A stretch of DNA of 64,000 bases from Oscillospiraceae bacterium (lineage in GTDB: Bacteria; Bacillota; Clostridia; Oscillospirales; Oscillospiraceae): the NCBI GenBank assembly GCA_017542425.1, contig JAFXXH010000017.1, forward strand, positions 2,129-66,128, written 5' to 3'. The notes beneath the pieces were generated by a model. That model saw nothing but the letters and a program-made list of their open reading frames with translations, was not told the origin of the DNA and did not search any database. Shown here piece by piece: positions 5,358 to 57,021 of this stretch; position 1 is the first letter of the stretch; each line of letters opens with the position of its first letter. Both the position numbers and the translations under genes were made by a program.

Positions 5358-6562
5358 TCTTTTTTTATTCGCCGCAGGATGCTCAGGCGCTCCGCCGGGG
5401 CGGGCAGCTTCATGCGGAGGGGCATCATCGGGTGCCGGGCCGTCTCCAGGGGCTGCCCCTCCCCGTCCCGCAGATCGGCGACGGTGAAGGGGACGGGCTT
5501 GTCGGTCCGGTTCAGCAGCTCCACCCGGTCCCCGACGGAAAAGCGGTTGCGCTCGGTCAGGACCGCCTCGCCGCATGGGTCGCAGGACTCCACCACGGCC
5601 ACGATCTCCGCGTCATAGAAATAGCTGCCCTCCGGGTAGTGCTCCCCCGGCTGGCCGAAATAGAAGCCGCTGGAGTAGGGCCGGTGGCTGAGCTTGTCGC
5701 ACTCTTTTCGCCAGTCCGGGTCAAAGGGCTTCCCCGCCAGCATGTCGTCCAGGGCGTGGCGGTAAGCGTTGGTGACGGCGGCGGCGTAGTAGGCGCTTTT
5801 CATCCGGCCCTCGATCTTGAAGCTGTCCACCCCCGCGTCCCGCAGGGCGGACAGATGCTCGATCATGCACAGGTCGCGGCTGTTGAGGATGTAGGCCCCC
5901 TCCGCGTCCTCGTCCAGCTGGAAATACTGGCCGGGGCGTTTTTCCTCCACCAGATGATATTTCCAGCGGCAGGGCTGGGCGCAGACGCCGCCGTTGCCGT
6001 CCCGCCCGGTCAGATAGTTGCTGAGCAGACAGCGCCCGGAAAAGCTGACGCACATGGCCCCGTGGACGAAGGCCTCCAGCTCCAGCTCCGGCGGACAGTT
6101 CGCCCGGATGGCGGCGATCTCGTCCAGGTGCAGCTCCCGCGCCAGCACGACGCGCTGCGCCCCCAGAGCATGCAGCATCCGGGCGCTTTCGGAATTTACG
6201 ACGCCGAACTGGGTGCTGATGTGGACGGGGACTGCGGGGGCGTAGCGTTTGGCCAGTGCCAGCACGCCCAGGTCCGCCAGAATCAGGCCGTCCGCTCCCG
6301 CCGCCGCGCAGCGCGCCAGGTGCTCCGGCAGTCCCGCCAGCTGCCCCTCGTGGGGCAGGGTGTTCACCGCTACATAGACTTTCGCCCCGGATGCATGGCT
6401 GAGGCGAATCGCCTCAGCCATGCCCTCCGGGTCGAAGTTTCCGGCGGCGGCCCGCAGACCGTAGGCCTTTCCGGCCAGATAGACGGCGTCCGCGCCGTAG
6501 TGCAGGGCCATCTCCAAGCGCTCCCGGTCCCCGGCGGGCGAGAGCAGCTCCGGCTTATTCAT
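5354..6562 (-). CDS. peptidase U32 family protein (collagenase-like; YrrN/YrrO/RlhA-type)
   Basis: MNKPELLSPAGDRERLEMALHYGADAVYLAG and ELEAFVHGAMCVSFSGRCLLSNY are typical U32 signatures. It follows mltG, as in the Bacillus yrrL-yrrN/O arrangement. Confidence 0.9.
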   Translation of the reverse strand: MNKPELLSPAGDRERLEMALHYGADAVYLAGKAYGLRAAAGNFDPEGMAEAIRLSHASGAKVYVAVNTLPHEGQLAGLPEHLARCAAAGADGLILADLGVLALAKRYAPAVPVHISTQFGVVNSESARMLHALGAQRVVLARELHLDEIAAIRANCPPELELEAFVHGAMCVSFSGRCLLSNYLTGRDGNGGVCAQPCRWKYHLVEEKRPGQYFQLDEDAEGAYILNSRDLCMIEHLSALRDAGVDSFKIEGRMKSAYYAAAVTNAYRHALDDMLAGKPFDPDWRKECDKLSHRPYSSGFYFGQPGEHYPEGSYFYDAEIVAVVESCDPCGEAVLTERNRFSVGDRVELLNRTDKPVPFTVADLRDGEGQPLETARHPMMPLRMKLPAPAERLSILRRIKKD

Positions 6563-7853
6563 ACTGCTGGGTCGCCACAAAGGCGTTGAACTCGTTGGCG
6601 TCCTGGAAGAAGCGATGGGTGCCGGACTCGGCGTCCAGGGCGTAGTAATAGTAATTGGTGTTCTCCGGGTTCAGCGCAGCCTGGATGCTGGCCATACCGG
6701 GGTTGCAGATGGGCGTGGGGGGCAGGCCGTGGTGCATCCGGGTGTTGTAGGGGCTGTCGTAATTGAGGATGTCGTCGGGAAGCTGGACGCCGCCGGCGTA
6801 GTCCGGGAAGAGGTACAGGATGGTGGAGTCCATGCCCAGCGTCATGCCCGCCGCCAGGCGGTTGTAGATGACGGAGGCGATTTTCCCCCGCTCCTCGTCG
6901 CTGCCGGCCTCTTTCTCGATGATGCTGGCCACGATGACCACATTGCGGAAGGTGGTGCCCCGGTTCTCGATCTGGGCCCACATGTCCGCCGTCACACGGC
7001 TGTGGAGGGCGGTGAGGAACTTGTTGACGACGCTGGCGGCCTGTTCGCCGTGGTAGAAGTCATAGGTGTTGGGGAAGATGAAGCCCTCCAGCCGGTGGGC
7101 GTCCCCGGTCTCCGCATTCTCCAGGAAGCGGAAGTTATAATTAAAGTTGGCCGCAGCGGCGTAGAGGTCCTCCGCCGAACAGATCTCCTCGGCCTCCAGC
7201 TTGCGGAAGATCTGGTCCATGGTCCAGCCCTCGGGGAAGGTAATTTTGGTCACCAGCATACTGGCCGTGCCCACCTGCATGTTCTTCACCAGGGCGCGGT
7301 AGTCCAGTTCCGTGCTCAGGTTGTATGCGCCCGGGTCGATTTTCACGTCGGCGTGGGAGAAGCTGGCAAAGAGCTTGAACAGGAGCTTGTATTCCACGAT
7401 GCCCGCGTCGTGCAGCGCCCCCGCCACATAGTCGATGTCCGCCACCCGGACGGTGCGGCTGCCCGTCACCTTGCCGTCCGCGTCTTTGATCAGCCGCTCC
7501 TCCTCATGGAAGATCTCGTCCGGCAGGACGACCGTGGCGGTCATGGGGTCTTTGTTCAGGGCCAGCACGTCCCGCGCCGCCATCCAGGCCATGCAGGCCA
7601 GGATAATGGAGACGCAGATGACGAACACGGCGTACATGACGCCGCCCAAAAGGCCGGTCTTGCCCGTGCGGCTGCGGCGGATGGGCTGGTAATCCCGCTC
7701 CTCCAGCTCCAACTCCGGGTCCTCCGGGGGCAGCTCCGCCCAAAAGGCTTCGTCCGCCTGCTGCCGGGCGTTCAGGTCATAGCTGTCCACCAGGGGATCG
7801 TCTTCGCGCTCCGGGTCCGGGACAGCGTTGGTTTCGTCGATCATGGGTTTCAC
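6555..7853 (-). CDS. mltG: endolytic murein transglycosylase MltG (YceG-like)
   Basis: N-terminal TM helix followed by FPEGWT, FIFPNTYDF, ASIIEKEA, VIYNRL and SPYNTRMHHGLPPTPICNPG motifs. Confidence 0.93.
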   Translation of the reverse strand: MKPMIDETNAVPDPEREDDPLVDSYDLNARQQADEAFWAELPPEDPELELEERDYQPIRRSRTGKTGLLGGVMYAVFVICVSIILACMAWMAARDVLALNKDPMTATVVLPDEIFHEEERLIKDADGKVTGSRTVRVADIDYVAGALHDAGIVEYKLLFKLFASFSHADVKIDPGAYNLSTELDYRALVKNMQVGTASMLVTKITFPEGWTMDQIFRKLEAEEICSAEDLYAAAANFNYNFRFLENAETGDAHRLEGFIFPNTYDFYHGEQAASVVNKFLTALHSRVTADMWAQIENRGTTFRNVVIVASIIEKEAGSDEERGKIASVIYNRLAAGMTLGMDSTILYLFPDYAGGVQLPDDILNYDSPYNTRMHHGLPPTPICNPGMASIQAALNPENTNYYYYALDAESGTHRFFQDANEFNAFVATQQYE

Positions 7854-7996
7854 CTCCGGGAGAGCAGACGCATAGGATGATGCGGATGGAGTCGGGAACG
7901 ACTCAATCCCACAAGATGCGCCTGCATTCGATTCAGTTCCGCGCCGGTGATGCAGGGCAAAAACAACGCTGCGGCGCGGAGAAAGGGATTTATATT

Positions 7997-8143
7997 ATGA
8001 TGTGCAACAACAATAACAACCTCTGGATCATCCTCATCCTCATCGTCCTGTTCGGCTGCGGCGGCTGCGGCTTCGGCTTTGGCTGCGGCAACAACTGCGG
8101 CTGCAACAACGGCTGCAACAACGACTGCGGCTGCGGCTGCTGA
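7997..8143 (+). CDS. 48-aa membrane peptide with a Cys/Gly/Asn-rich tail (10 Cys)
   Basis: MMCNNNNNLWIILILIVLFGCGGCGFGFGCGNNCGCNNGCNNDCGCGC. RBS GGAGAAAGGG lies 8-10 nt upstream of the ATG. A strong rho-independent terminator lies 35 nt downstream. The longer 88-aa track ORF has no RBS. Confidence 0.6.
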   Translation: MMCNNNNNLWIILILIVLFGCGGCGFGFGCGNNCGCNNGCNNDCGCGC

Positions 8144-8177
8144 GTCGGCCCGCCCGTCCAACGGGAGAGATGCTCAT

Positions 8178-8208
8178 GGGAGCCCCTTCGGGGGCTCCTT
8201 TTTTTTTT
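8178..8208 (+). terminator. rho-independent terminator
   Basis: GGGAGCCCC-TTCG-GGGGCTCC followed by T10. Confidence 0.85.
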
Positions 8209-8248
8209 GGAAACGCCGCCGGAAACGGCAGTATAGTCCCCGTTTGCA

Positions 8249-8977
8249 TCATTTTGGACGAGCGCGGAGGACTTGGACCAGGAACAGGGGCAGCTTCATC
8301 ATGCGCCCGATGCGCCTTGGCTCTTTCAGCAGCCGGTAGAGCCACTCCAGGCCCGCTTTCTGCCAGCCCAGAGGGGCCCGGGCGGCGTCCCCGGCCAGCA
8401 CGTCCAGCGCGCCGCCGTTGCCCACCATCAGGCCGACCTGCAGCCGGGGGGCGTTGGCGTGCATCCACTTTTCCTGCTTCGGCGCGCCCAGGCAGACCAG
8501 CAGCAGCTCCGGCGCGGCGGCGTTGATTTGCTCCAGCACCGGGCCGTCGTCGGAAAAGTAGCCGTCGTGGACCCCCGCCAGGCGGAGGCCCGGAAAGCGT
8601 TCACGCAGTTTTTCCCAGGCGCGCTCGGCCACGCCGGGCTTGCTGCCCAGCAGGAACACGCTGCCGCCGCTGCCGTCCAGGGCCTCCAGGAGCCGGGTGG
8701 AGAAGTCGATGCCCGGCACCCGCTCTTTCAGGGGCGTTTTCAGCAGCTTCGCGCCATAGATGACGCCGATGCCGTCCGGGATGGTCAGGGCCGCCCCCGC
8801 CACCGCCGCCGCGGCCTCCGGGTCCTCCCGACAGGCCAGGACGATCTCCGGGTTCGGCGTGACCACATAGGCCGCCCGGCGCTTGCGCATCAGCGTCAAA
8901 GCCCGTTCCACGGCCTCGTCCATGCTGAGGTTGTCGAATGCGACGCCCAAAACGTCGATGCGTGCCCGCTCGCTCAT
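8249..8977 (-). CDS. WecB/TagA/CpsF family glycosyltransferase
   Basis: 242 aa. The N-terminus IDVLGVAFDNLSMDEAV and the central VFLLGSKPGVAERA with GAPKQEKW are characteristic of TagA-type N-acetylmannosaminyltransferases. Confidence 0.88.
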   Translation of the reverse strand: MSERARIDVLGVAFDNLSMDEAVERALTLMRKRRAAYVVTPNPEIVLACREDPEAAAAVAGAALTIPDGIGVIYGAKLLKTPLKERVPGIDFSTRLLEALDGSGGSVFLLGSKPGVAERAWEKLRERFPGLRLAGVHDGYFSDDGPVLEQINAAAPELLLVCLGAPKQEKWMHANAPRLQVGLMVGNGGALDVLAGDAARAPLGWQKAGLEWLYRLLKEPRRIGRMMKLPLFLVQVLRARPK

Positions 8978-9690
8978 AACTGTGAAAAGACCTCCCCGAT
9001 CTTGTCGTGTATCACCAGGTCCGCCCAGGCGTCCGCACTCGTAGCGTCCCGGTTCACCAGCACCAGCTTCTGGCCCCGGTAATAGCGGATCAGCCCCGCC
9101 GCCGGGTAGACCACCAGGCTGGTGCCGCCGATGATGAGGACATCCGCCTGGCGGATGTAGCGGACCGCCCGGCTGATGGCATCTTCGTCCAGCGCCTCCT
9201 CATACAGTACGATGTCGGGGCGGATGACGCCGCCGCAGTCGCAGCGGGGCACGCCCTCCCCCTCCTGGATGCGCTCCGCGGGCCAGGGTTTCCGACAGCG
9301 GGAACAGTAGGCCCGCAGCAGACTGCCGTGCAGTTCGATGACGTTCCGGCTGCCTGCGGCCTGGTGGAGCCCGTCGATGTTCTGGGTGATGACGGCCCGG
9401 AGCTTGCCCTGGGCCTCCCACTCCGCCAGCTTCCGGTGGGCGGCGTTGGGCTGCGCCCCACGGAGGCAGAGCTTGTCGTGGTGGAAGCGGAAGTACTCCT
9501 CCGGATTGGCCTGGAAGAAGCTGTGGCTCAGGATCTGTTCCGGGGGGTATTTGTAATGCTGGCTGTATAGTCCGTCCACGCTGCGGAAGTCGGGGATGCC
9601 GCTCTCCGTGCTGACGCCCGCGCCGCCAAAGAATACGATGTTGTCCGATCCGGCGATCCAATCCCGGAGCCGGGCAATGCGCTCGTCCAT
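8974..9690 (-). CDS. cobB: NAD-dependent protein deacylase (Sir2 family)
   Basis: FFGGAGVSTESGIPDFRS, QNIDGLH and a Zn ribbon CSRC...CDCGG. The start was set at MDERIARL, which has a GGAGGG RBS. Confidence 0.92.
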   Translation of the reverse strand: MDERIARLRDWIAGSDNIVFFGGAGVSTESGIPDFRSVDGLYSQHYKYPPEQILSHSFFQANPEEYFRFHHDKLCLRGAQPNAAHRKLAEWEAQGKLRAVITQNIDGLHQAAGSRNVIELHGSLLRAYCSRCRKPWPAERIQEGEGVPRCDCGGVIRPDIVLYEEALDEDAISRAVRYIRQADVLIIGGTSLVVYPAAGLIRYYRGQKLVLVNRDATSADAWADLVIHDKIGEVFSQL

Positions 9691-9900
9691 GCCGATCCCT
9701 CCACCCAGTCTGGTTTTCCATATCTTAACACAGCCCTCGCTAAAAAGCAAGAAATGCGCGCCACTCCGCTCTTGATAAATTTAGACACTTTTGCTATAAT
9801 GTCAGTAATCTGTTGACGGATGTCGAAACAAATACCCAAAGACCCAGCGGGCCCGCCGGAAGCCGCCCCGTGCCCGATGATCTGAAAAAGGAGGTTCGTC

Positions 9901-11253
9901 ATGAAACGATGCAGCAAATGCGGCAAGACCTATGAGGACTGGAGCATTTTCTGCCGGGACTGCGGCCAGCTCCTGAGCCCCGAGGGGGAAGCCGCGCCGA
10001 CGCCGGCCCAGGCCGAGAGCGTGCTGCGTGCGCAGCCGGAAGAGGAGACCCTGCTCCAGGCCGCAGCGCCCCCGCCGCCGGAGCCGGAGGCCCCCGCCGC
10101 GCCGACGCCGCCCCAGGCGGATGCGCCGCAGACGCCCGCCGTGCCCGGCCGGATGCAGCAGCCCGGCGGAGCGCCCCAGCCGGAAGCGCCGCAGACGCCC
10201 GCCGCCGTGCCGCCGCCGCAGCAGCCGAGCCAAGGCCCGTTCCCCTATTCCGGCCCCTATGACCCCATCCCGGATATGTTCAAGGAAGCGCCGCCGGAGC
10301 CAAAGGTGAAAAAGCCCCGGCCCCTGCGGGACGGCTCTCTGCCCAAACTGGGCTTCGGACGTGGGCTTGCCTATGTGCTGGCCGGAATTCTGCTCTTTCT
10401 GCTGCTGGCCGCGCCGCTGGGCGTTTACATTGTCCGGGAGAGCAGCACGGAAGCGGGCCTGAACACCCTGCTGGCCGACGTGCGCCTCTCCCAGATCCCC
10501 GCCGGCGACGTGATCCGCGGGGCGGACCCCCAGCAGACCGTTTCCGGCTGGCTGGGCGACAAGCTCTTTGCCCTGAGCAAAAAACTGGACTTCACCACCG
10601 AGGCGGTGGCGGACTTTCTGGACCGCAGCAGCCTGAAGGACTCCGCTGTCCGGGACCTGGCCGCCGTACTCCGCGACTGGTTCGCGGGCAGCGGGGAGCA
10701 CGCCCTGGGCAAGGCGGAATACCGGGCCATGATCGTGGAGAACCAGGGGCTGTTTGAGGACGTGTTCCACAAGGAGCTGCCCACGGAGCTGACTCCCATG
10801 CTGGCCGACCTGCTGGTCTCCAGCGGTCTGCCCACCCTGCCCACCCAGGCGGAACTGCGCCAGGCGAATCCCACCCTGAGCACGGCGCTGCAATACGGCT
10901 TCTCCTGGGTCACCGTGATCGTCCTGCTGCTGCTGGCGGTGCTGGTCTTCCTGCTGCTGTGCAAGCTGGCCCGGGGCGTCCTGCGGCCCCTGCGCAGCCT
11001 GGGGATTCTGCTCTGCATTCTGGGCGGCCTGACCGCGCTGGCGGCGGGCTTTGCCAAGCTGCTGCCGGACCTCTGGAGCGGCCTTTTGCAGGCGGGCTAT
11101 GTGCCCGGCAAGGCCAGCGCCGCCCTGCTGGGCAGCCAGCTCCCCATCTTCCTGGGGATGCTGGGGTTGGGCGTCCTGCTCCTGGTGCTGGTCCGCCTGA
11201 TCCGCGCCGGACAGGCCCGGCGTGCGGCAAAACGACTGGCCAAAGCGGGCTGA
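9901..11253 (+). CDS. zinc-ribbon, proline-rich, multi-pass membrane protein of unknown function
   Basis: MKRCSKCGKTYEDWSIFCRDCG zinc ribbon, then a ~120-aa Pro/Ala/Gln-rich linker, then a TM helix, a soluble domain and 3-4 C-terminal TM helices. Confidence 0.8.
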   Translation: MKRCSKCGKTYEDWSIFCRDCGQLLSPEGEAAPTPAQAESVLRAQPEEETLLQAAAPPPPEPEAPAAPTPPQADAPQTPAVPGRMQQPGGAPQPEAPQTPAAVPPPQQPSQGPFPYSGPYDPIPDMFKEAPPEPKVKKPRPLRDGSLPKLGFGRGLAYVLAGILLFLLLAAPLGVYIVRESSTEAGLNTLLADVRLSQIPAGDVIRGADPQQTVSGWLGDKLFALSKKLDFTTEAVADFLDRSSLKDSAVRDLAAVLRDWFAGSGEHALGKAEYRAMIVENQGLFEDVFHKELPTELTPMLADLLVSSGLPTLPTQAELRQANPTLSTALQYGFSWVTVIVLLLLAVLVFLLLCKLARGVLRPLRSLGILLCILGGLTALAAGFAKLLPDLWSGLLQAGYVPGKASAALLGSQLPIFLGMLGLGVLLLVLVRLIRAGQARRAAKRLAKAG

Positions 11254-40391: not shown

Positions 40392-41513
40392 TCAGGCTTT
40401 TTTCAGGATTTTTTCACAGATCTCCGCCGCCCGCGCCATTTGCAGGCGGCTGTTGAAGGGCGAGGTGGAAAAGCGCACGGTGCCCCGCTCCACGGTGCCC
40501 GCCGTCAGGTGGGCCAGGGGCGCGCAGTGAAGCCCGCTGCGGACGGCAACGCCCGCCTCGGCAAGCGCCTGGGCGAAGAGGTCGCAGTCCATGGCCAGGG
40601 GCTGCACGGAGAGGACGCCGGTCTGCAATGCCTCCGAAGCGGAGTCGAAGAGCCGCAGACGCCCGGAAGCCGCCAAAGGCTCCGCCAGGGCCCGCAGACG
40701 CGCCCACTCGGCGGTCCGGACCACCTCCGTCCCGTTGGCCAGAAGCCAGTCCAGCGCGGCGCTGAGGCCCGCCACGCCGCAGACGTTGGGGGTCCCGGCC
40801 TCCAGGCGGTCGGGCAGATAGTCCGGCATATCCTGGGCGCGGCTGTCGGAACCGCTCCCGCCATATAACAGCGGCCTTGCATCATTTTTACATAACAGCA
40901 GCCCGGTGCCCTGGGGGCCCATCAGACCCTTGTGCCCCGGCATGGCGACGAAGTCCGCGCCCAGGGCCTCGAAGTCCAGGGGCAGCACCCCGGCGGACTG
41001 GGAGGCGTCCACAATCAGGGGCTTGCCCTGGACCCGGCACAGGGCGGCCAGTTCCCGGACGGGCAGGATGTAGCCGAAGACGTTGGAAACCTGGGTGCAG
41101 ACCACGGCGTCCGCCCGCCCGATGCGCGCCTCCGCCTCCCGCAGAAAGGCCTCTGGCTGATAAAGGGGCGTGTTCACCACACTGAGCCGGGCGCGCAGGG
41201 CGTGGAGCGGGCGGGTCACGGCGTTGTGCTCGTAGCCGGAGATCAGCACCCGGGCGCCGGGGCGGACCAGGGAGCGGATGGCAATGTTCAGGCCGTGGGT
41301 GGCGTTGAAGGTCAGCACCACCCGCTCCGGCTCGGCAACGTGGAACAGGTTCGCGGCCTTCTCCCGGCAGCGATAGCAGCACGCCGCCGCCTCCATGGCC
41401 GGGACATGGCCGCCCCGGCCCGGGGAGGCCATGTGGCCCATGGCCCGCAGCACCGCCGGGGCCACGGTCTCCGGCTTCAGAAGGCTGGTGGCGGCCGTGT
41501 CCAGGTAGATCAT
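40392..41513 (-). CDS. class V aminotransferase-fold cysteine desulfurase family protein
   Basis: MIYLDTAATS start, PLP-Lys context MPGHKGLMGPQG, and a catalytic-loop RSGLHCAP. The 77-codon extension in the track overlaps the upstream gene and is R/P/G-rich. Confidence 0.9.
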   Translation of the reverse strand: MIYLDTAATSLLKPETVAPAVLRAMGHMASPGRGGHVPAMEAAACCYRCREKAANLFHVAEPERVVLTFNATHGLNIAIRSLVRPGARVLISGYEHNAVTRPLHALRARLSVVNTPLYQPEAFLREAEARIGRADAVVCTQVSNVFGYILPVRELAALCRVQGKPLIVDASQSAGVLPLDFEALGADFVAMPGHKGLMGPQGTGLLLCKNDARPLLYGGSGSDSRAQDMPDYLPDRLEAGTPNVCGVAGLSAALDWLLANGTEVVRTAEWARLRALAEPLAASGRLRLFDSASEALQTGVLSVQPLAMDCDLFAQALAEAGVAVRSGLHCAPLAHLTAGTVERGTVRFSTSPFNSRLQMARAAEICEKILKKA

Positions 41514-41767
41514 TGCGGTACCTCCTCCAGCGCCCCGTTTGGCAGGACGCGGAACAGCTTGCCGCACGCGATGTTCTCCCGCCGGAGTACCTCCCTGGCC
41601 GCCGCCAGGTTCCGCTCGCCGATCTTCACGCCGTAGGCGCAGCCGCCGGGGTTGGCGCGCTGGGGCGCTTTCGTCACCGAGGCGAAGACGCCGGCGCTCT
41701 GGAGCGCGGCGGCGGCCCGCTGGGTGCGGGTCAGGGAGCGGCACAGGATGATGATATGACTGTTCAA
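41510..41767 (-). CDS. DUF3343 protein (putative Se/S carrier-like)
   Basis: 85 aa. IIILCRSLTRTQRAAAALQSAGVFASVTKAP...GCAYGVKI matches the DUF3343 pattern. It overlaps the desulfurase start by 4 nt. Confidence 0.75.
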   Translation of the reverse strand: MNSHIIILCRSLTRTQRAAAALQSAGVFASVTKAPQRANPGGCAYGVKIGERNLAAAREVLRRENIACGKLFRVLPNGALEEVPQ

Positions 41768-41788
41768 GGGGTTTTCTCTCCTTTCGAT

Positions 41789-41832
41789 GAAAAAAGCGGA
41801 GTACGGCCAGATCTCTCTGGTGTACTCCGCTT
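41789..41832 (-). terminator. rho-independent terminator after ispF
   Basis: Minus strand reads AAGCGGAGTAC-loop-GTACTCCGCTT followed by TTTTTCATCG. Confidence 0.75.
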
Positions 41833-41904
41833 GCAGTTTGTCGGAAATCCGGGCGGCGATGCGCCCGCGCTGTATTCTATGCCGCCGGGCCGCCGGCTGT
41901 ACCC

Positions 41905-54414: not shown

Positions 54415-54588
54415 TCATTTCGTGTCCGCGCCCTTGCCGCATCCGCCGCAGGCGGCGCAATCACAGCCGCAGGAAGCGTTCCCCGCTTTTTTGTCGCGGC
54501 GCATGGCGCGGAACACCAGGCCCACGACCAGCACGAGGACGGCGACCAGCACGAGATTGATGAGATTGGCGGAAAGCCAGGCCAGCAT
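54415..54588 (-). CDS. FeoB-associated Cys-rich membrane peptide (57 aa)
   Basis: Own translation: MLAWLSANLINLVLVAVLVLVVGLVFRAMRRDKKAGNASCGCDCAACGGCGKGADTK. It has one TM helix plus a CxC/CxxC tail directly downstream of feoB. It falls below the size cutoff of the ORF track, and the 174-aa track ORF here is in a different frame. Confidence 0.75.
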   Translation of the reverse strand: MLAWLSANLINLVLVAVLVLVVGLVFRAMRRDKKAGNASCGCDCAACGGCGKGADTK

Positions 54589-54672: not shown

Positions 54673-57021
54673 TTACTTCACGGTCAGCTTCTGGGCCTCC
54701 TTGTAGGGCTTGAAGAGCTGCCACAGGAGCAGACCCAGCGCAATCAGCGCCAGAATCAGGCCGACGACGTTCACGCCGCCCACGAACACCCGGCCGATCT
54801 GCCAGACCAGGAAGGCGATCACCCAGGCAAAGCCGCACTGGTAGCCGATGGCGAACCAGGTCCACTTGCGGCTGTTCATCTCCCGCCTGATCGCGCCGAT
54901 GGCCGCGAAACAGGGGGCGCAGAGCAGGTTGAAAATCAGGAAGGCATAGGCGGCAAGTCTGCCGTGGCCGCCGGAGATGGCGTTGAAGTCCTCCGCCACG
55001 TTCTCCCAGATCTGGTCGCCGTTTTCCTCCAGCTCCTCCAGGATGGGTTCGCCGGTCTCCTCGTCAAAGAGCGGTTCGCCGGTCTCCTCGTCCACGGCCT
55101 GCTCGGCCCTGGCGTCGAAGTTGTACATGATTCCGAAGTTGGCCACGACCTCCTCCTTTGCCACCAGGCCGGTGACCGTGGCGGCAGTGGGCTTCCAGTC
55201 GCCGAAGCCCAGGGGCTTGAAGACGATGGAGACGGGCTGGGCCACGCGGGCCAGGATGGAATCGTCCATCGGCTCCACCTCGTCCTCGGAGATGCCCATA
55301 CGCTCGGCCACGATGGCCACATATTCGTCGGTGACCAGGCTGTCATCCTCATAGAGCTCGTCCACCATGCCGAATCTGCCGTTGACGGAGCCGAAGCTGG
55401 TCAGGAACCAGATCACAATGGAGGAGACCACGATGACGGTCCCGGCGCGCTTGATAAAGCTCCAGCCGCGCTCCCAGGTGCCGCGCAGGACGTTGCCCCA
55501 GGCGGGGGCGTGGTAGGCGGGCAGCTCCATGACGAAGGGGGCGGGGTCCCCGGCAAAGCGCTTCGTCTTCTTCAGCATGATACCGGAGATCACAATGGCA
55601 GCCACGCCGATGAAGTAGGCGGAGGTGGCGACCAGGGTGCTGCCGCCGAACAGCGCGCCCGCGATCAGGCCGACGATGGGCATTTTCGCCCCGCAGGGCA
55701 TGAAGGTGGTGGTCATGATGGTCATGCGGCGGTCACGCTCGTTTTCAATCGTGCGGGAGGCCATGACGCCGGGGATGCCGCAGCCGGTACCCACCAGCAT
55801 GGGGATGAAGCTCTTGCCGCTCAGGCCGAAGCGGCGGAAGATGCGGTCCATGATGAAGGCGATGCGCGCCATGTAGCCGCAGTCCTCCAGCAGGCAAAGC
55901 ATCAGGAACAGCACCAGCATCTGGGGCACGAAGCCCAACACCGCGCCCACGCCGGCCAGGATGCCGTCGGAGATCAGACCCACCAGCCAGGGGGCGGCGT
56001 TCCAGCTCTCCAGGATGGCGCGGGAGCCGTCGGTCAGCCAGGCCCCGCCCAGCACGTCGTTGGCCCAGTCGGTCAGGAAGGTGCCGATGGAAATGCCGCC
56101 GTCGGCGATGGAGGTGCCCATGGACAGGGCGTAGACCAGGAACATGACTCCGATGAAAATCGGCAGCGCCAGGATGCGGTTGGTGACGATCTTGTCGATC
56201 CGGTCGGAGGTACTCTGTTTGGTCCTGTTCTTTTTCTGATAGCACCCGCGCATCAGGCCCGCGATGTAGATGTAGCGCTCGTTGGTAATGATGCTCTCCG
56301 CGTCGTCGTCCAGCTCCCGCTCCGCCGCGGCGATATCCTGTTCGATATGTGCTTTGATCCCGTCGCTGAGGGCCAGCTTGCTCTGGACCTTTTCATCCCG
56401 CTCGAAGAGCTTGACGGCATACCAGCGCTGGCGCTCCTCCGGCATGTTGTGGACCGTAATCTCCTCGATGTGGGCCAGGGCGTGCTCCACCACGCCGGAA
56501 AAGCTGTGCTGGGGCACGGTCCTCGGCCCCTGGGCGGCCTCCACGCAGGCGCGGACCGCCGCGTCGATCCCCTCGCCCTTGAGCGCGGAGATCTCAACAA
56601 TCCGGCAACCCAGGGCGCGGCCCAGTTCCTCCGTGTGGATGGTGTCGCCGGACTTGCGCACCAGGTCCATCATGTTCAGGGCAATGACCACGGGGATGCC
56701 GATCTCCACCAGTTGGGTGGTCAGATAGAGGTTGCGCTCCAGATTCGTGGCGTCGACGATGTTCAGCACCACGTCGGGCTGTTCGTCGATCAGATAGTTC
56801 CGGGCCACGACCTCCTCCAGCGTGTAAGGGGACAGAGAGTAGATGCCGGGTAGGTCCGTGACGGTCACGTCCTTCTGGCCGCGCACGCGGCCCTCCTTCT
56901 TCTCCACCGTCACGCCGGGCCAGTTGCCCACATACTGCTGGGTCCCGGTCAGCGCGTTGAACAGCGTCGTCTTGCCGCAGTTGGGGTTGCCGGCAAGGGC
57001 GATGCGAATTCCAGTTTTCAT
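54673..57021 (-). CDS. feoB: ferrous iron transporter FeoB
   Basis: IALAGNPNCGKTTLFNALTG G1 motif, DLPGIYSL, NMMD, and a large gate-motif-containing polytopic membrane domain. Confidence 0.97.
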   Translation of the reverse strand: MKTGIRIALAGNPNCGKTTLFNALTGTQQYVGNWPGVTVEKKEGRVRGQKDVTVTDLPGIYSLSPYTLEEVVARNYLIDEQPDVVLNIVDATNLERNLYLTTQLVEIGIPVVIALNMMDLVRKSGDTIHTEELGRALGCRIVEISALKGEGIDAAVRACVEAAQGPRTVPQHSFSGVVEHALAHIEEITVHNMPEERQRWYAVKLFERDEKVQSKLALSDGIKAHIEQDIAAAERELDDDAESIITNERYIYIAGLMRGCYQKKNRTKQSTSDRIDKIVTNRILALPIFIGVMFLVYALSMGTSIADGGISIGTFLTDWANDVLGGAWLTDGSRAILESWNAAPWLVGLISDGILAGVGAVLGFVPQMLVLFLMLCLLEDCGYMARIAFIMDRIFRRFGLSGKSFIPMLVGTGCGIPGVMASRTIENERDRRMTIMTTTFMPCGAKMPIVGLIAGALFGGSTLVATSAYFIGVAAIVISGIMLKKTKRFAGDPAPFVMELPAYHAPAWGNVLRGTWERGWSFIKRAGTVIVVSSIVIWFLTSFGSVNGRFGMVDELYEDDSLVTDEYVAIVAERMGISEDEVEPMDDSILARVAQPVSIVFKPLGFGDWKPTAATVTGLVAKEEVVANFGIMYNFDARAEQAVDEETGEPLFDEETGEPILEELEENGDQIWENVAEDFNAISGGHGRLAAYAFLIFNLLCAPCFAAIGAIRREMNSRKWTWFAIGYQCGFAWVIAFLVWQIGRVFVGGVNVVGLILALIALGLLLWQLFKPYKEAQKLTVK

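Follow-up and report, generated by a model that had tools for sequence, protein, structure and literature searches.

A cysteine-rich single-helix micro-protein of Clostridia with a sigma-K-type promoter and a candidate pseudoknotted leader, probably linked to late sporulation

Peptides of the YjcZ family ('tiny_TM_bacill', TIGR01732 / PF09680), which have fewer than 60 amino acids, combine a short N-terminus of low complexity with one very hydrophobic helix, are often present in several copies per genome and are annotated as sporulation proteins. The cysteine-rich proteins of the spore surface, CotY/ExsY/CotZ of Bacillus, CdeC/CdeM of Clostridioides difficile and CsxA of Clostridium sporogenes/botulinum, are soluble and roughly 150-400 amino acids long. 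Cys-rich proteins of this kind, made late in the mother cell, assemble by themselves and become cross-linked in the coat or the exosporium (PMC7333573, PMC6101409, PMC4950064). SscA of Bacillus subtilis, a hydrophobic inner-coat peptide of 28 amino acids, is highly expressed and safA-dependent, and its loss lowers CotB, CotG and CotH (PMC13417171). The 64,000-nucleotide stretch of Oscillospiraceae DNA analysed here (contig JAFXXH010000017.1, assembly GCA_017542425.1; the whole stretch is referred to as the window) encodes at 7997-8143 (+) a peptide of 48 amino acids, MMCNNNNNLWIILILIVLFGCGGCGFGFGCGNNCGCNNGCNNDCGCGC, which is built along the lines of the YjcZ peptides. It is a member of a large, uncurated Cys/Gly/Asn-rich single-helix micro-protein family of endospore-forming Clostridia, and its gene is very probably a real one linked to sporulation.

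A first-pass annotation of the window had proposed the 48-residue peptide, which matched both the sequence and the list of open reading frames (ORFs) exactly, the gene reading ATG ATG TGC AAC ... TGC TGA. An N-terminal MMCNNNNN is followed by the hydrophobic helix LWIILILIVLF and by a Cys/Gly/Asn tail whose last residues are CGCGC; C-x-C and C-x-x-C motifs are present. The annotation had described a transmembrane helix plus a tail with ten cysteines. The helix-plus-tail layout and the total of 10 cysteines stand, with the correction that nine lie in the tail and one in the N-terminus. Given the family alignment, AlphaFold2 placed one helix at residues 8-20 with a predicted local distance difference test (pLDDT) score of about 76; outside the helix the peptide was disordered, with a pLDDT below 50 in the tail and a mean of 56.6. 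The ribosome-binding site GGAGAAAGGGA (7978-7988, +) contains the Shine-Dalgarno core AGAAAGGGA (7980-7988, +) and ends 8 nucleotides (nt) before the ATG at 7997; it had been called good, and GGAGAAAGG is kept with equal spacing to the start throughout the long-leader group described below. The intrinsic terminator at 8178-8209 (+), said to be very strong, proved to have a 9-bp stem at 8178-8199 with 7 G-C pairs, a 4-nt loop and T10, and comparable stem-plus-T-run sequences lie 3' of the stop codon in most homologous loci. The immediately flanking genes are all on the minus strand and the next plus-strand ORF starts at 9901, in agreement with the remark that the gene opposes its neighbours. 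The gene at 7997-8143 is genuine and monocistronic, with a promoter, a Shine-Dalgarno sequence and a terminator of its own. Absent from the first-pass annotation were the sigma-K-type promoter, the structured, pseudoknotted leader of about 110 nt, and how large and widespread the family is.

The promoter consists of a -35 element TCACC at 7850-7854 (+), with the conserved 'AC' at 7852-7853, and a -10 element CATAGGATG at 7871-7879 (+), which is CATAnnnTA-like and of the mother-cell sigma-E/K type. The spacer between 'AC' and CATAGGATG is 17 nt, and the predicted 5' untranslated region (UTR) is about 110 nt long. In C. difficile and B. subtilis the -35 element separates the two sigma factors, AC marking sigma-K and ATA sigma-E, and sigK P2 is an example with CATATAAT plus AC (PMC3789822). 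All the features of a sigma-K promoter, ie 'AC' at -35, 'CATAnnnTA' at -10 and a spacing of 16-17 nt, are present in the window. A CATAnnnT(A/G) box was found at conserved distances upstream in 85 of the 96 non-redundant family loci, and in most loci an 'AC' (gtAACc, gCACa or gtCACc) stands 15-17 nt upstream of the box. The loci without the box are mostly second genes of tandem pairs or have one-base variants of it. By our estimate from base composition, the full motif would arise by chance in a 160-nt GC-rich upstream region in less than 1% of cases. Shorter relatives from other families within the order have this promoter too, and it also stands before tandem pairs in other orders. Since this arrangement of AC and CATAnnnT matches the published rule, the family promoter is taken to be of the sigma-K type.

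Relatives were sought at several levels. A word-based search of 5.8 billion proteins returned four; when 151 genomes belonging to the same family were searched in six frames (E <= 1), 74 gave matches. All 29 loci that were fetched (locus GC 46-65%) contained an intact ORF of 36-58 amino acids with the same design, M(F)C(G)NNN(S)C - LWIIIILIILF - (C/G/N/D-rich tail) - CGC/CC-stop. Scanning 185,579 species genomes with an IUPAC pattern for C-L-W-I-I-[IL]-I-L-I gave at least 120 matches; 73 among the 120 matches listed are family members, and the names borne by these members are Oscillospiraceae, Pseudoflavonifractor, Flavonifractor, Intestinimonas, Oscillibacter, Evtepia, Acutalibacteraceae, Ruminococcaceae and Ructibacterium. 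Among 1.84 billion representative proteins, a profile built from 50 members matched 246 clusters (50% identity).

In about 100 loci from many genera, with a GC content of 46-65%, the same frame and architecture are kept through synonymous codon turnover: an N-terminal Cys/Asn/Gly stretch, a hydrophobic helix with an invariant Trp, and a Cys/Gly/Asn tail. The start codon, Shine-Dalgarno sequence, promoter and terminator are likewise conserved. At the fixed residues of the helix the codons vary (Leu CTC/CTG/CTT/TTA/TTG, Ile ATC/ATT/ATA, Cys TGC/TGT), the conserved Leu, Ile and Cys columns showing up to five synonymous codons each; the pattern by which loci L031-L150 were picked fixed the residues CLWII[IL]ILI and left the codons free. 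Fixed amino acids with varying codons imply purifying selection on the sense frame. The first-pass annotation had proposed a search for relatives and had taken conservation of the nucleotide repeat alone as the outcome that would speak against a gene; what the search found was a reading frame conserved in all these loci through synonymous changes.

Family peptides are 27-69 amino acids long, with tails of 5-43 residues; the helix is preceded by 1-2 cysteines, and the tail has 2-17. Cys accounts for 23.8% of residues, Gly for 23.6%, Asn for 16.3%, Ile for 10.8% and Leu for 7.9%. Lys is absent and Arg almost absent family-wide, and a K or R before the helix occurs in 2 of 96 members. It follows from this composition that standard tryptic spore proteomics could not detect the peptides, which may explain why the family is absent from the literature: a full-text search of a library of papers found no description of it, and the human-microbiome small-protein survey of Sberro et al. 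mentions SCIFF and nothing like this peptide family. The small proteins associated with c-di-GMP riboswitches in C. difficile (PMC13724677), which were considered as possible relatives, are unrelated, being 58 amino acids long, basic and C. difficile-specific. The public protein library also holds 'homologues' of 77-329 amino acids, which are frameshifted, read-through or adaptor-chimeric gene calls; one chimera has a tail reading AVSYTHLTLPTILLV. They come from frameshifted read-through of the GC-rich repeat or are adaptor chimeras, and such genes are poorly called. The 'long' relatives P0006-P0008, P0090, P0112 and P0137 from metagenome protein collections were accordingly ruled out as fusions. 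Pfam and NCBIfam searches with the peptide and 28 relatives (E <= 10) gave nothing beyond noise on the hydrophobic stretch, namely sub-threshold matches to TatA or ODV-E18 caused by the helix.

The distribution of the peptide was compared with that of SpoIVA, which the window's own genome encodes. Among 401 genomes of the order the peptide was found in 132 (profile, E <= 1e-3) and SpoIVA in 360. The peptide was present in 129 of the 360 SpoIVA-positive genomes and in 3 of the 41 SpoIVA-negative ones (odds ratio 7.1, Fisher p = 8e-5), and the three negative carriers are all metagenome-assembled genomes of 76-92% completeness. Nearly all carriers of the family encode SpoIVA. At the level of the class, 63 of 399 genomes matched at E <= 1e-4, adding about a dozen further families. 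Three options had been put forward for the peptide in the first-pass annotation, and the small sporulation protein of the 'tiny TM' (transmembrane) type is the best fit among them, given the sigma-K-type promoter and the association with SpoIVA. Its suggested likeness to YjcZ did not extend to membership: TIGR01732 / PF09680 gave no match at E <= 10 in the peptide or in 29 members, and a six-frame search of the window's genome with PF09680 (YjcZ_2) gave nothing at E <= 10, while the same model scored above its cut-off in B. subtilis.

Three leader types occur in the family, and in all of them a hairpin immediately follows the predicted start site of transcription. In the window this is the stem-loop P1, GGAU-G-GAGUCG[GGAA]CGACUC-A-AUCC, at 7884-7909 (+), which forms the predicted 5' end of the mRNA and is part of the minimum-free-energy (MFE) fold. 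The 38 nt after the -10 element gave z = -3.47 in the window and a mean z of -1.43 over 77 loci, with 40% below -2, and the stem sequences differ among the 77 loci. In B. subtilis a stem-loop at the very 5' end protects an mRNA from 5'-dependent decay. The longer leader of the mltG-linked group also has a CCGYRC sequence that pairs with GYRCGG immediately 5' of the Shine-Dalgarno sequence AGAAAGG. In the window the 5' arm, CCGCGC at 7939-7944 (+, extendable to 7937-7946), is carried in the loop of hairpin P2 (7917-7959, +; arms 7917-7930 / 7945-7959), and the 3' arm, GCGCGG at 7974-7979 (+, extendable to 7972-7981), abuts the Shine-Dalgarno core. The arms co-vary, as CCGCGC/GCGCGG, CCGCAC/GUGCGG, CCGUGC/GCACGG, CUGCAC/GUGCAG and ACGCGC/GCGCGU. 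In alignment A2, which was made with MAFFT and not fitted to any structure, 95.5% of the cells in the arms were paired and double (compensatory) changes were seen in 4 of the 6 pairs. None of 500 shuffles reached the covariation observed, and sliding the partner arm by 1-3 columns brought pairing down to 19-61%. When folds were constrained, the 5' arm lay in the P2 loop in 21 of 28 leaders, compared to 23% with the flanks shuffled. The stem sequences of P2 vary from genus to genus, and the linker from P2 to the 3' arm is A/U-rich and 20-54 nt long, in most cases 20-41. A sister subgroup has CUGCGCA/UGCGCAG before GGCAGAAUGGAG, arranged alike. The pairing pattern suggests an H-type pseudoknot or, alternatively, two mutually exclusive folds; the nested MFE fold of the window leader comprises P1 and the long-range helix between the two arms (-43.4 kcal/mol, z = -3.09).

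Rfam had nothing overlapping 7880-7996 at E <= 10, and there was no gathering-level match in 20 homologous loci. The leader pattern matched 33 of the 151 family genomes, compared to 2 with the reversed control. Of 30 loci that were fetched, 24 have a family peptide after the leader and a CATAnnnT box that lies 91-151 nt before the ATG; the remaining six are without the box and look like chance matches. The window's genome has exactly one such leader. Since the motif stands only before family peptides, the RNA element is dedicated to this gene, and the long form is missing from many family members. The leader is a candidate for a new cis-regulatory RNA that would act in the mother cell, the candidate roles being those of a riboswitch, a translational brake, a stabiliser or a protein site.

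The account that we favour, and consider fairly likely, is that the peptide is a late-sporulation micro-protein, anchored or self-assembling by way of its helix, whose thiols form cross-links or bind metal in the spore envelope. The gene would be transcribed in the mother cell late in sporulation, the 5' hairpin would make the mRNA long-lived, and the pseudoknot could modulate ribosome access. The Trp-capped, very hydrophobic helix of 11-13 residues would associate with itself or enter a membrane, for which the outer forespore membrane is the most plausible candidate, and the thiol-dense flanks would form disulfide or metal-thiolate links with one another or with coat or exosporium proteins. 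As a tiny anchoring and cross-linking part of the spore envelope, the peptide would combine functions of SscA with those of CotY, ExsY, CdeC and CsxA. For this specific role as an envelope cross-linker we put the chances at slightly below even.

Several points weigh against this account. The promoter was assigned by motif only, and its -10 element is common to sigma-E and sigma-K, which leaves the 'AC' at -35 as the basis for the timing. The sequence AC-N16/17-CATAnnnT[AG] has 61 matches in the window's genome compared to about 83 expected by our own estimate from its base composition. This is about or below chance, and the genome-wide scan was therefore rejected as a positive control; because the motif is not enriched in the genome, the promoter argument rests on conservation across the family. 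With the threshold used here, the family is present in only about a third of the SpoIVA-positive genomes and is thus not a core sporulation gene, and the genomes are related, so the Fisher p and the shuffle statistics overstate independence. Selecting L031-L150 by CLWII[IL]ILI inflates the apparent conservation of those columns. The hydrophobic run of 11-13 residues (about 17 with its Cys/Gly flanks) is short for a bilayer span, topology is unpredictable in a peptide without charged residues, and the envelope cross-linking role is drawn by analogy.

A bolder version of the favoured account, which we consider unlikely, is that the leader is a new pseudoknot riboswitch or other ligand- or redox-sensing RNA and the peptide a new thiol-dense, membrane-anchored spore layer. 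The leader would then control when a stable sigma-K transcript is translated, awaiting a late-sporulation cue such as a metal ion, dipicolinate or a change in thiol redox state. The peptide layer would rivet the outer forespore membrane to the coat, and would harden by disulfide or metal-thiolate bonds once the spore of the anaerobe meets oxygen or metals.

Eight ORFs downstream of genomic motif matches were compared with Pfam, and only a Cu/Zn superoxide dismutase-like protein and DapA are plausibly linked to sporulation. In the window's genome AC-N16/17-CATAnnnT[AG], followed by a Shine-Dalgarno sequence and a start codon, stands before the SodC-like gene (C44, 167 amino acids) and before dapA (C62, 296 amino acids), and likewise before an 85-amino-acid 'Se/S carrier-like' gene (PF11823) at roughly 41,500-41,900 (-) in the window. 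With a motif that is not enriched genome-wide, the three genes are no more than candidates for the same regulon.

The genes around the peptide gene are all on the minus strand. They are a YceG/MltG gene (6555-7844; PF02618, E = 1e-77), a WecG/TagA gene (8249-8977; PF03808, E = 8e-61), a Sir2 deacylase gene (8974-9750) and, in the flanking region, alaS and U32 peptidase genes. The divergent YceG/MltG gene most likely starts with the ATG at 7844 (MIDETN...), not with the GTG at 7853 given by the ORF finder, and its Shine-Dalgarno sequence GGAGGTG (complement of about 7852-7858) overlaps the -35 element of the peptide promoter. When 102 family loci were searched by tblastn, the neighbours beside the peptide were mltG (59 loci), a wecG/tagA-like gene (46), a U32 peptidase (27) and Sir2 (19). 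These conserved neighbours identify the window copy as an orthologue inherited vertically in a housekeeping neighbourhood, and the mltG-linked orthologous group holds a fixed slot between mltG and the wecG/tagA-like gene. No maturase, transporter, immunity or antitoxin partner was found at the window locus or at syntenic loci.

A second group of paralogues (L056, L059, L081, L102, L127, L130, L133, L138, L146) has a short leader of about 48 nt and always lies just downstream of a gene for a Cys-rich, zinc-ribbon-like protein of roughly 210-250 amino acids. That protein ends ...DIEDLCCKPTLTIRG and had no significant match in Pfam, CoiA_N matching weakly only. Tandem heterotypic pairs of peptides occur in some Oscillospirales and in most carriers outside the order (L085, L114, L135 and L202-L212). 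In a pair, the usual ending is ...CGCGC for one peptide and ...CCCD or ...GCC for its partner, and a single sigma-K-type promoter precedes the first gene.

Binding of metal might be the whole function rather than part of an envelope role. The product would then be a metallothionein-like peptide whose tail, rich in C-x-C and C-x-x-C, binds Zn, Cu, Cd or an Fe-S cluster at the membrane, buffering or delivering metal, perhaps still during sporulation, and the leader could be a metal-responsive RNA. A Cys content of 23% in repeated CGC/CGGC/CNNGC motifs, a tail that for the most part lacks aromatics, a disordered apo form, and a dedicated structured leader beside the Shine-Dalgarno sequence, resembling the metal-riboswitch kind of element, would all suit such a peptide. 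It is nevertheless an improbable account, since the conserved neighbourhood is without metal-homeostasis genes, the near-universal upstream feature is a sigma-K-type promoter and not a metal-regulator site, and many members have a tail of 5-10 residues (CCCCG) and no long leader. Models of metallothioneins and of metal-transport families gave no match, and the FeoB-associated model PF12669, which found its positive control in the window at E = 6.2e-12, matched none of 29 members. We give still less credence to a holin- or type-I-toxin-like peptide that would damage membranes late, aiding mother-cell lysis and spore release, with the leader restraining translation. Charged termini, normal in holins and type I toxins, are virtually missing from the family; inheritance is vertical at a fixed housekeeping locus (59 of 102), not mobile or multi-copy as for toxin-antitoxin loci; no antisense promoter or antitoxin RNA signal was found and Rfam gave no match; and the conserved Cys clusters have no role in a lysis model. 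What the peptide does share with such toxins is small size, extreme hydrophobicity, a monocistronic gene and a structured 5' UTR that reaches the Shine-Dalgarno sequence, a feature of many type I toxin mRNAs, together with the late mother-cell timing inferred from the promoter.

Three further accounts are more doubtful again. A core rich in Cys, Gly, Asn and Ser superficially resembles microcin B17-like/TOMM cores and SCIFF-type Cys patterns, and the peptide could on that ground be the precursor of a ribosomally synthesised and post-translationally modified peptide (RiPP) of the thiazol(in)e, thioether or sactionine type, its maturase encoded elsewhere in the genome. The lack of an adjacent maturase had already been held against a RiPP, and that argument has become stronger: the neighbours are conserved housekeeping genes, radical-SAM, YcaO and LanM genes are absent within about 5 kb, and neither these nor a transporter gene is adjacent here or at the syntenic loci. 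SCIFF, bacteriocin and other NCBIfam precursor models matched neither the peptide nor its relatives, the supposed leader peptide would be an all-hydrophobic helix, the tail varies from 5 to 43 residues and the promoter is of a sporulation type, which together make a RiPP very improbable. Equally hard to credit is an exported lipopeptide, for which the hydrophobic segment would be a lipoprotein signal peptide and the product would be lipidated on the outer face of the membrane. The sequence L-F-[GSAC]-C is lipobox-like, the residue before the first Cys after the helix usually being G, S, A or C after L/I-F, but the basic n-region that export requires is missing (K or R before the helix in 2 of 96, as noted), the conserved Cys N-terminal of the helix would be discarded, and there was no significant lipoprotein model. 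The least probable account of all is that there is no protein gene, the frame being a by-product of the GC-rich GGCTGC/AACAAC repeat or the locus encoding an RNA. Other frames and the antisense strand are indeed open across the repeat (ORFs 7850-8161 and 8079-8339), but it is the sense frame only that keeps start codon, Shine-Dalgarno spacing and stop in all loci, its amino acids are conserved through synonymous changes at GC 46-65%, and promoter and terminator are oriented to fit the sense strand.

If the peptides are envelope components, as in the account we favour, they would matter beyond the locus described here. Through their spores many strict anaerobes among the gut Clostridia withstand oxygen and reach new hosts, yet the outer layers of the spore have hardly been characterised in Oscillospiraceae, Ruminococcaceae and related groups. 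This class-wide peptide family is named in no curated database. A hydrophobic helix with poly-thiol flanks would be a new building block for models of spore assembly and resistance, and would lend itself to spore display as a compact and probably highly expressed anchor, a use that SscA has in B. subtilis. Riboswitch-type control in the mother cell is hardly explored, and the pseudoknotted leader is a separate lead.

Within the window the nearest comparator is a FeoB-associated Cys-rich membrane protein of 57 amino acids at 54415-54588 (-; PF12669, E = 6e-12), whose gene comes immediately after feoB (54673-57021, -). It is an ordinary member of its family, of a kind easily missed by annotation. 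The first-pass annotation saw the same architecture in the peptide at 7997-8143, with many more cysteines and no feoB nearby. The comparator is real, and the two are alike in architecture, both having about 50 amino acids and an N-terminal helix followed by a Cys/Gly-rich tail; the likeness goes no further, since the peptide does not match PF12669 and lacks the basic stretch (RAMRRDKK) after the helix. Its far higher Cys content and the absence of feoB, its neighbours being YceG/MltG and WecG/TagA, were both borne out, and it has in addition its own sporulation-type promoter and structured leader.

Compared to YjcZ there is no detectable sequence relationship. The family described here is rich in Cys/Asn/Gly instead of Gly/Tyr, has a poly-Cys tail and an invariant Trp cap, and is found in Clostridia (Oscillospirales and others), whereas YjcZ belongs mainly to Bacillales. 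To the Cys-rich spore-surface proteins there is likewise no sequence similarity, and in place of a soluble protein there is a peptide of 27-69 amino acids around a hydrophobic helix. The eukaryotic CYSTM proteins (PF12734), tail-anchored and stress-related, are also small and have a Cys cluster that flanks or enters a single hydrophobic helix; the peptide had no Pfam match to them, and they have the opposite orientation, with the Cys-rich helix C-terminal, and should be seen as an analogy only. The leader, in which the most conserved nucleotides are the paired arms themselves and for which Rfam had no match at E <= 10, could equally be a stability or protein-binding element. In its arrangement it is like the H-type pseudoknot riboswitches preQ1-I/II, SAM-II/V and guanidine-III, with a hairpin loop that would pair with a 3' segment adjoining the Shine-Dalgarno sequence, an A/U-rich linker, and dedication to one type of gene.

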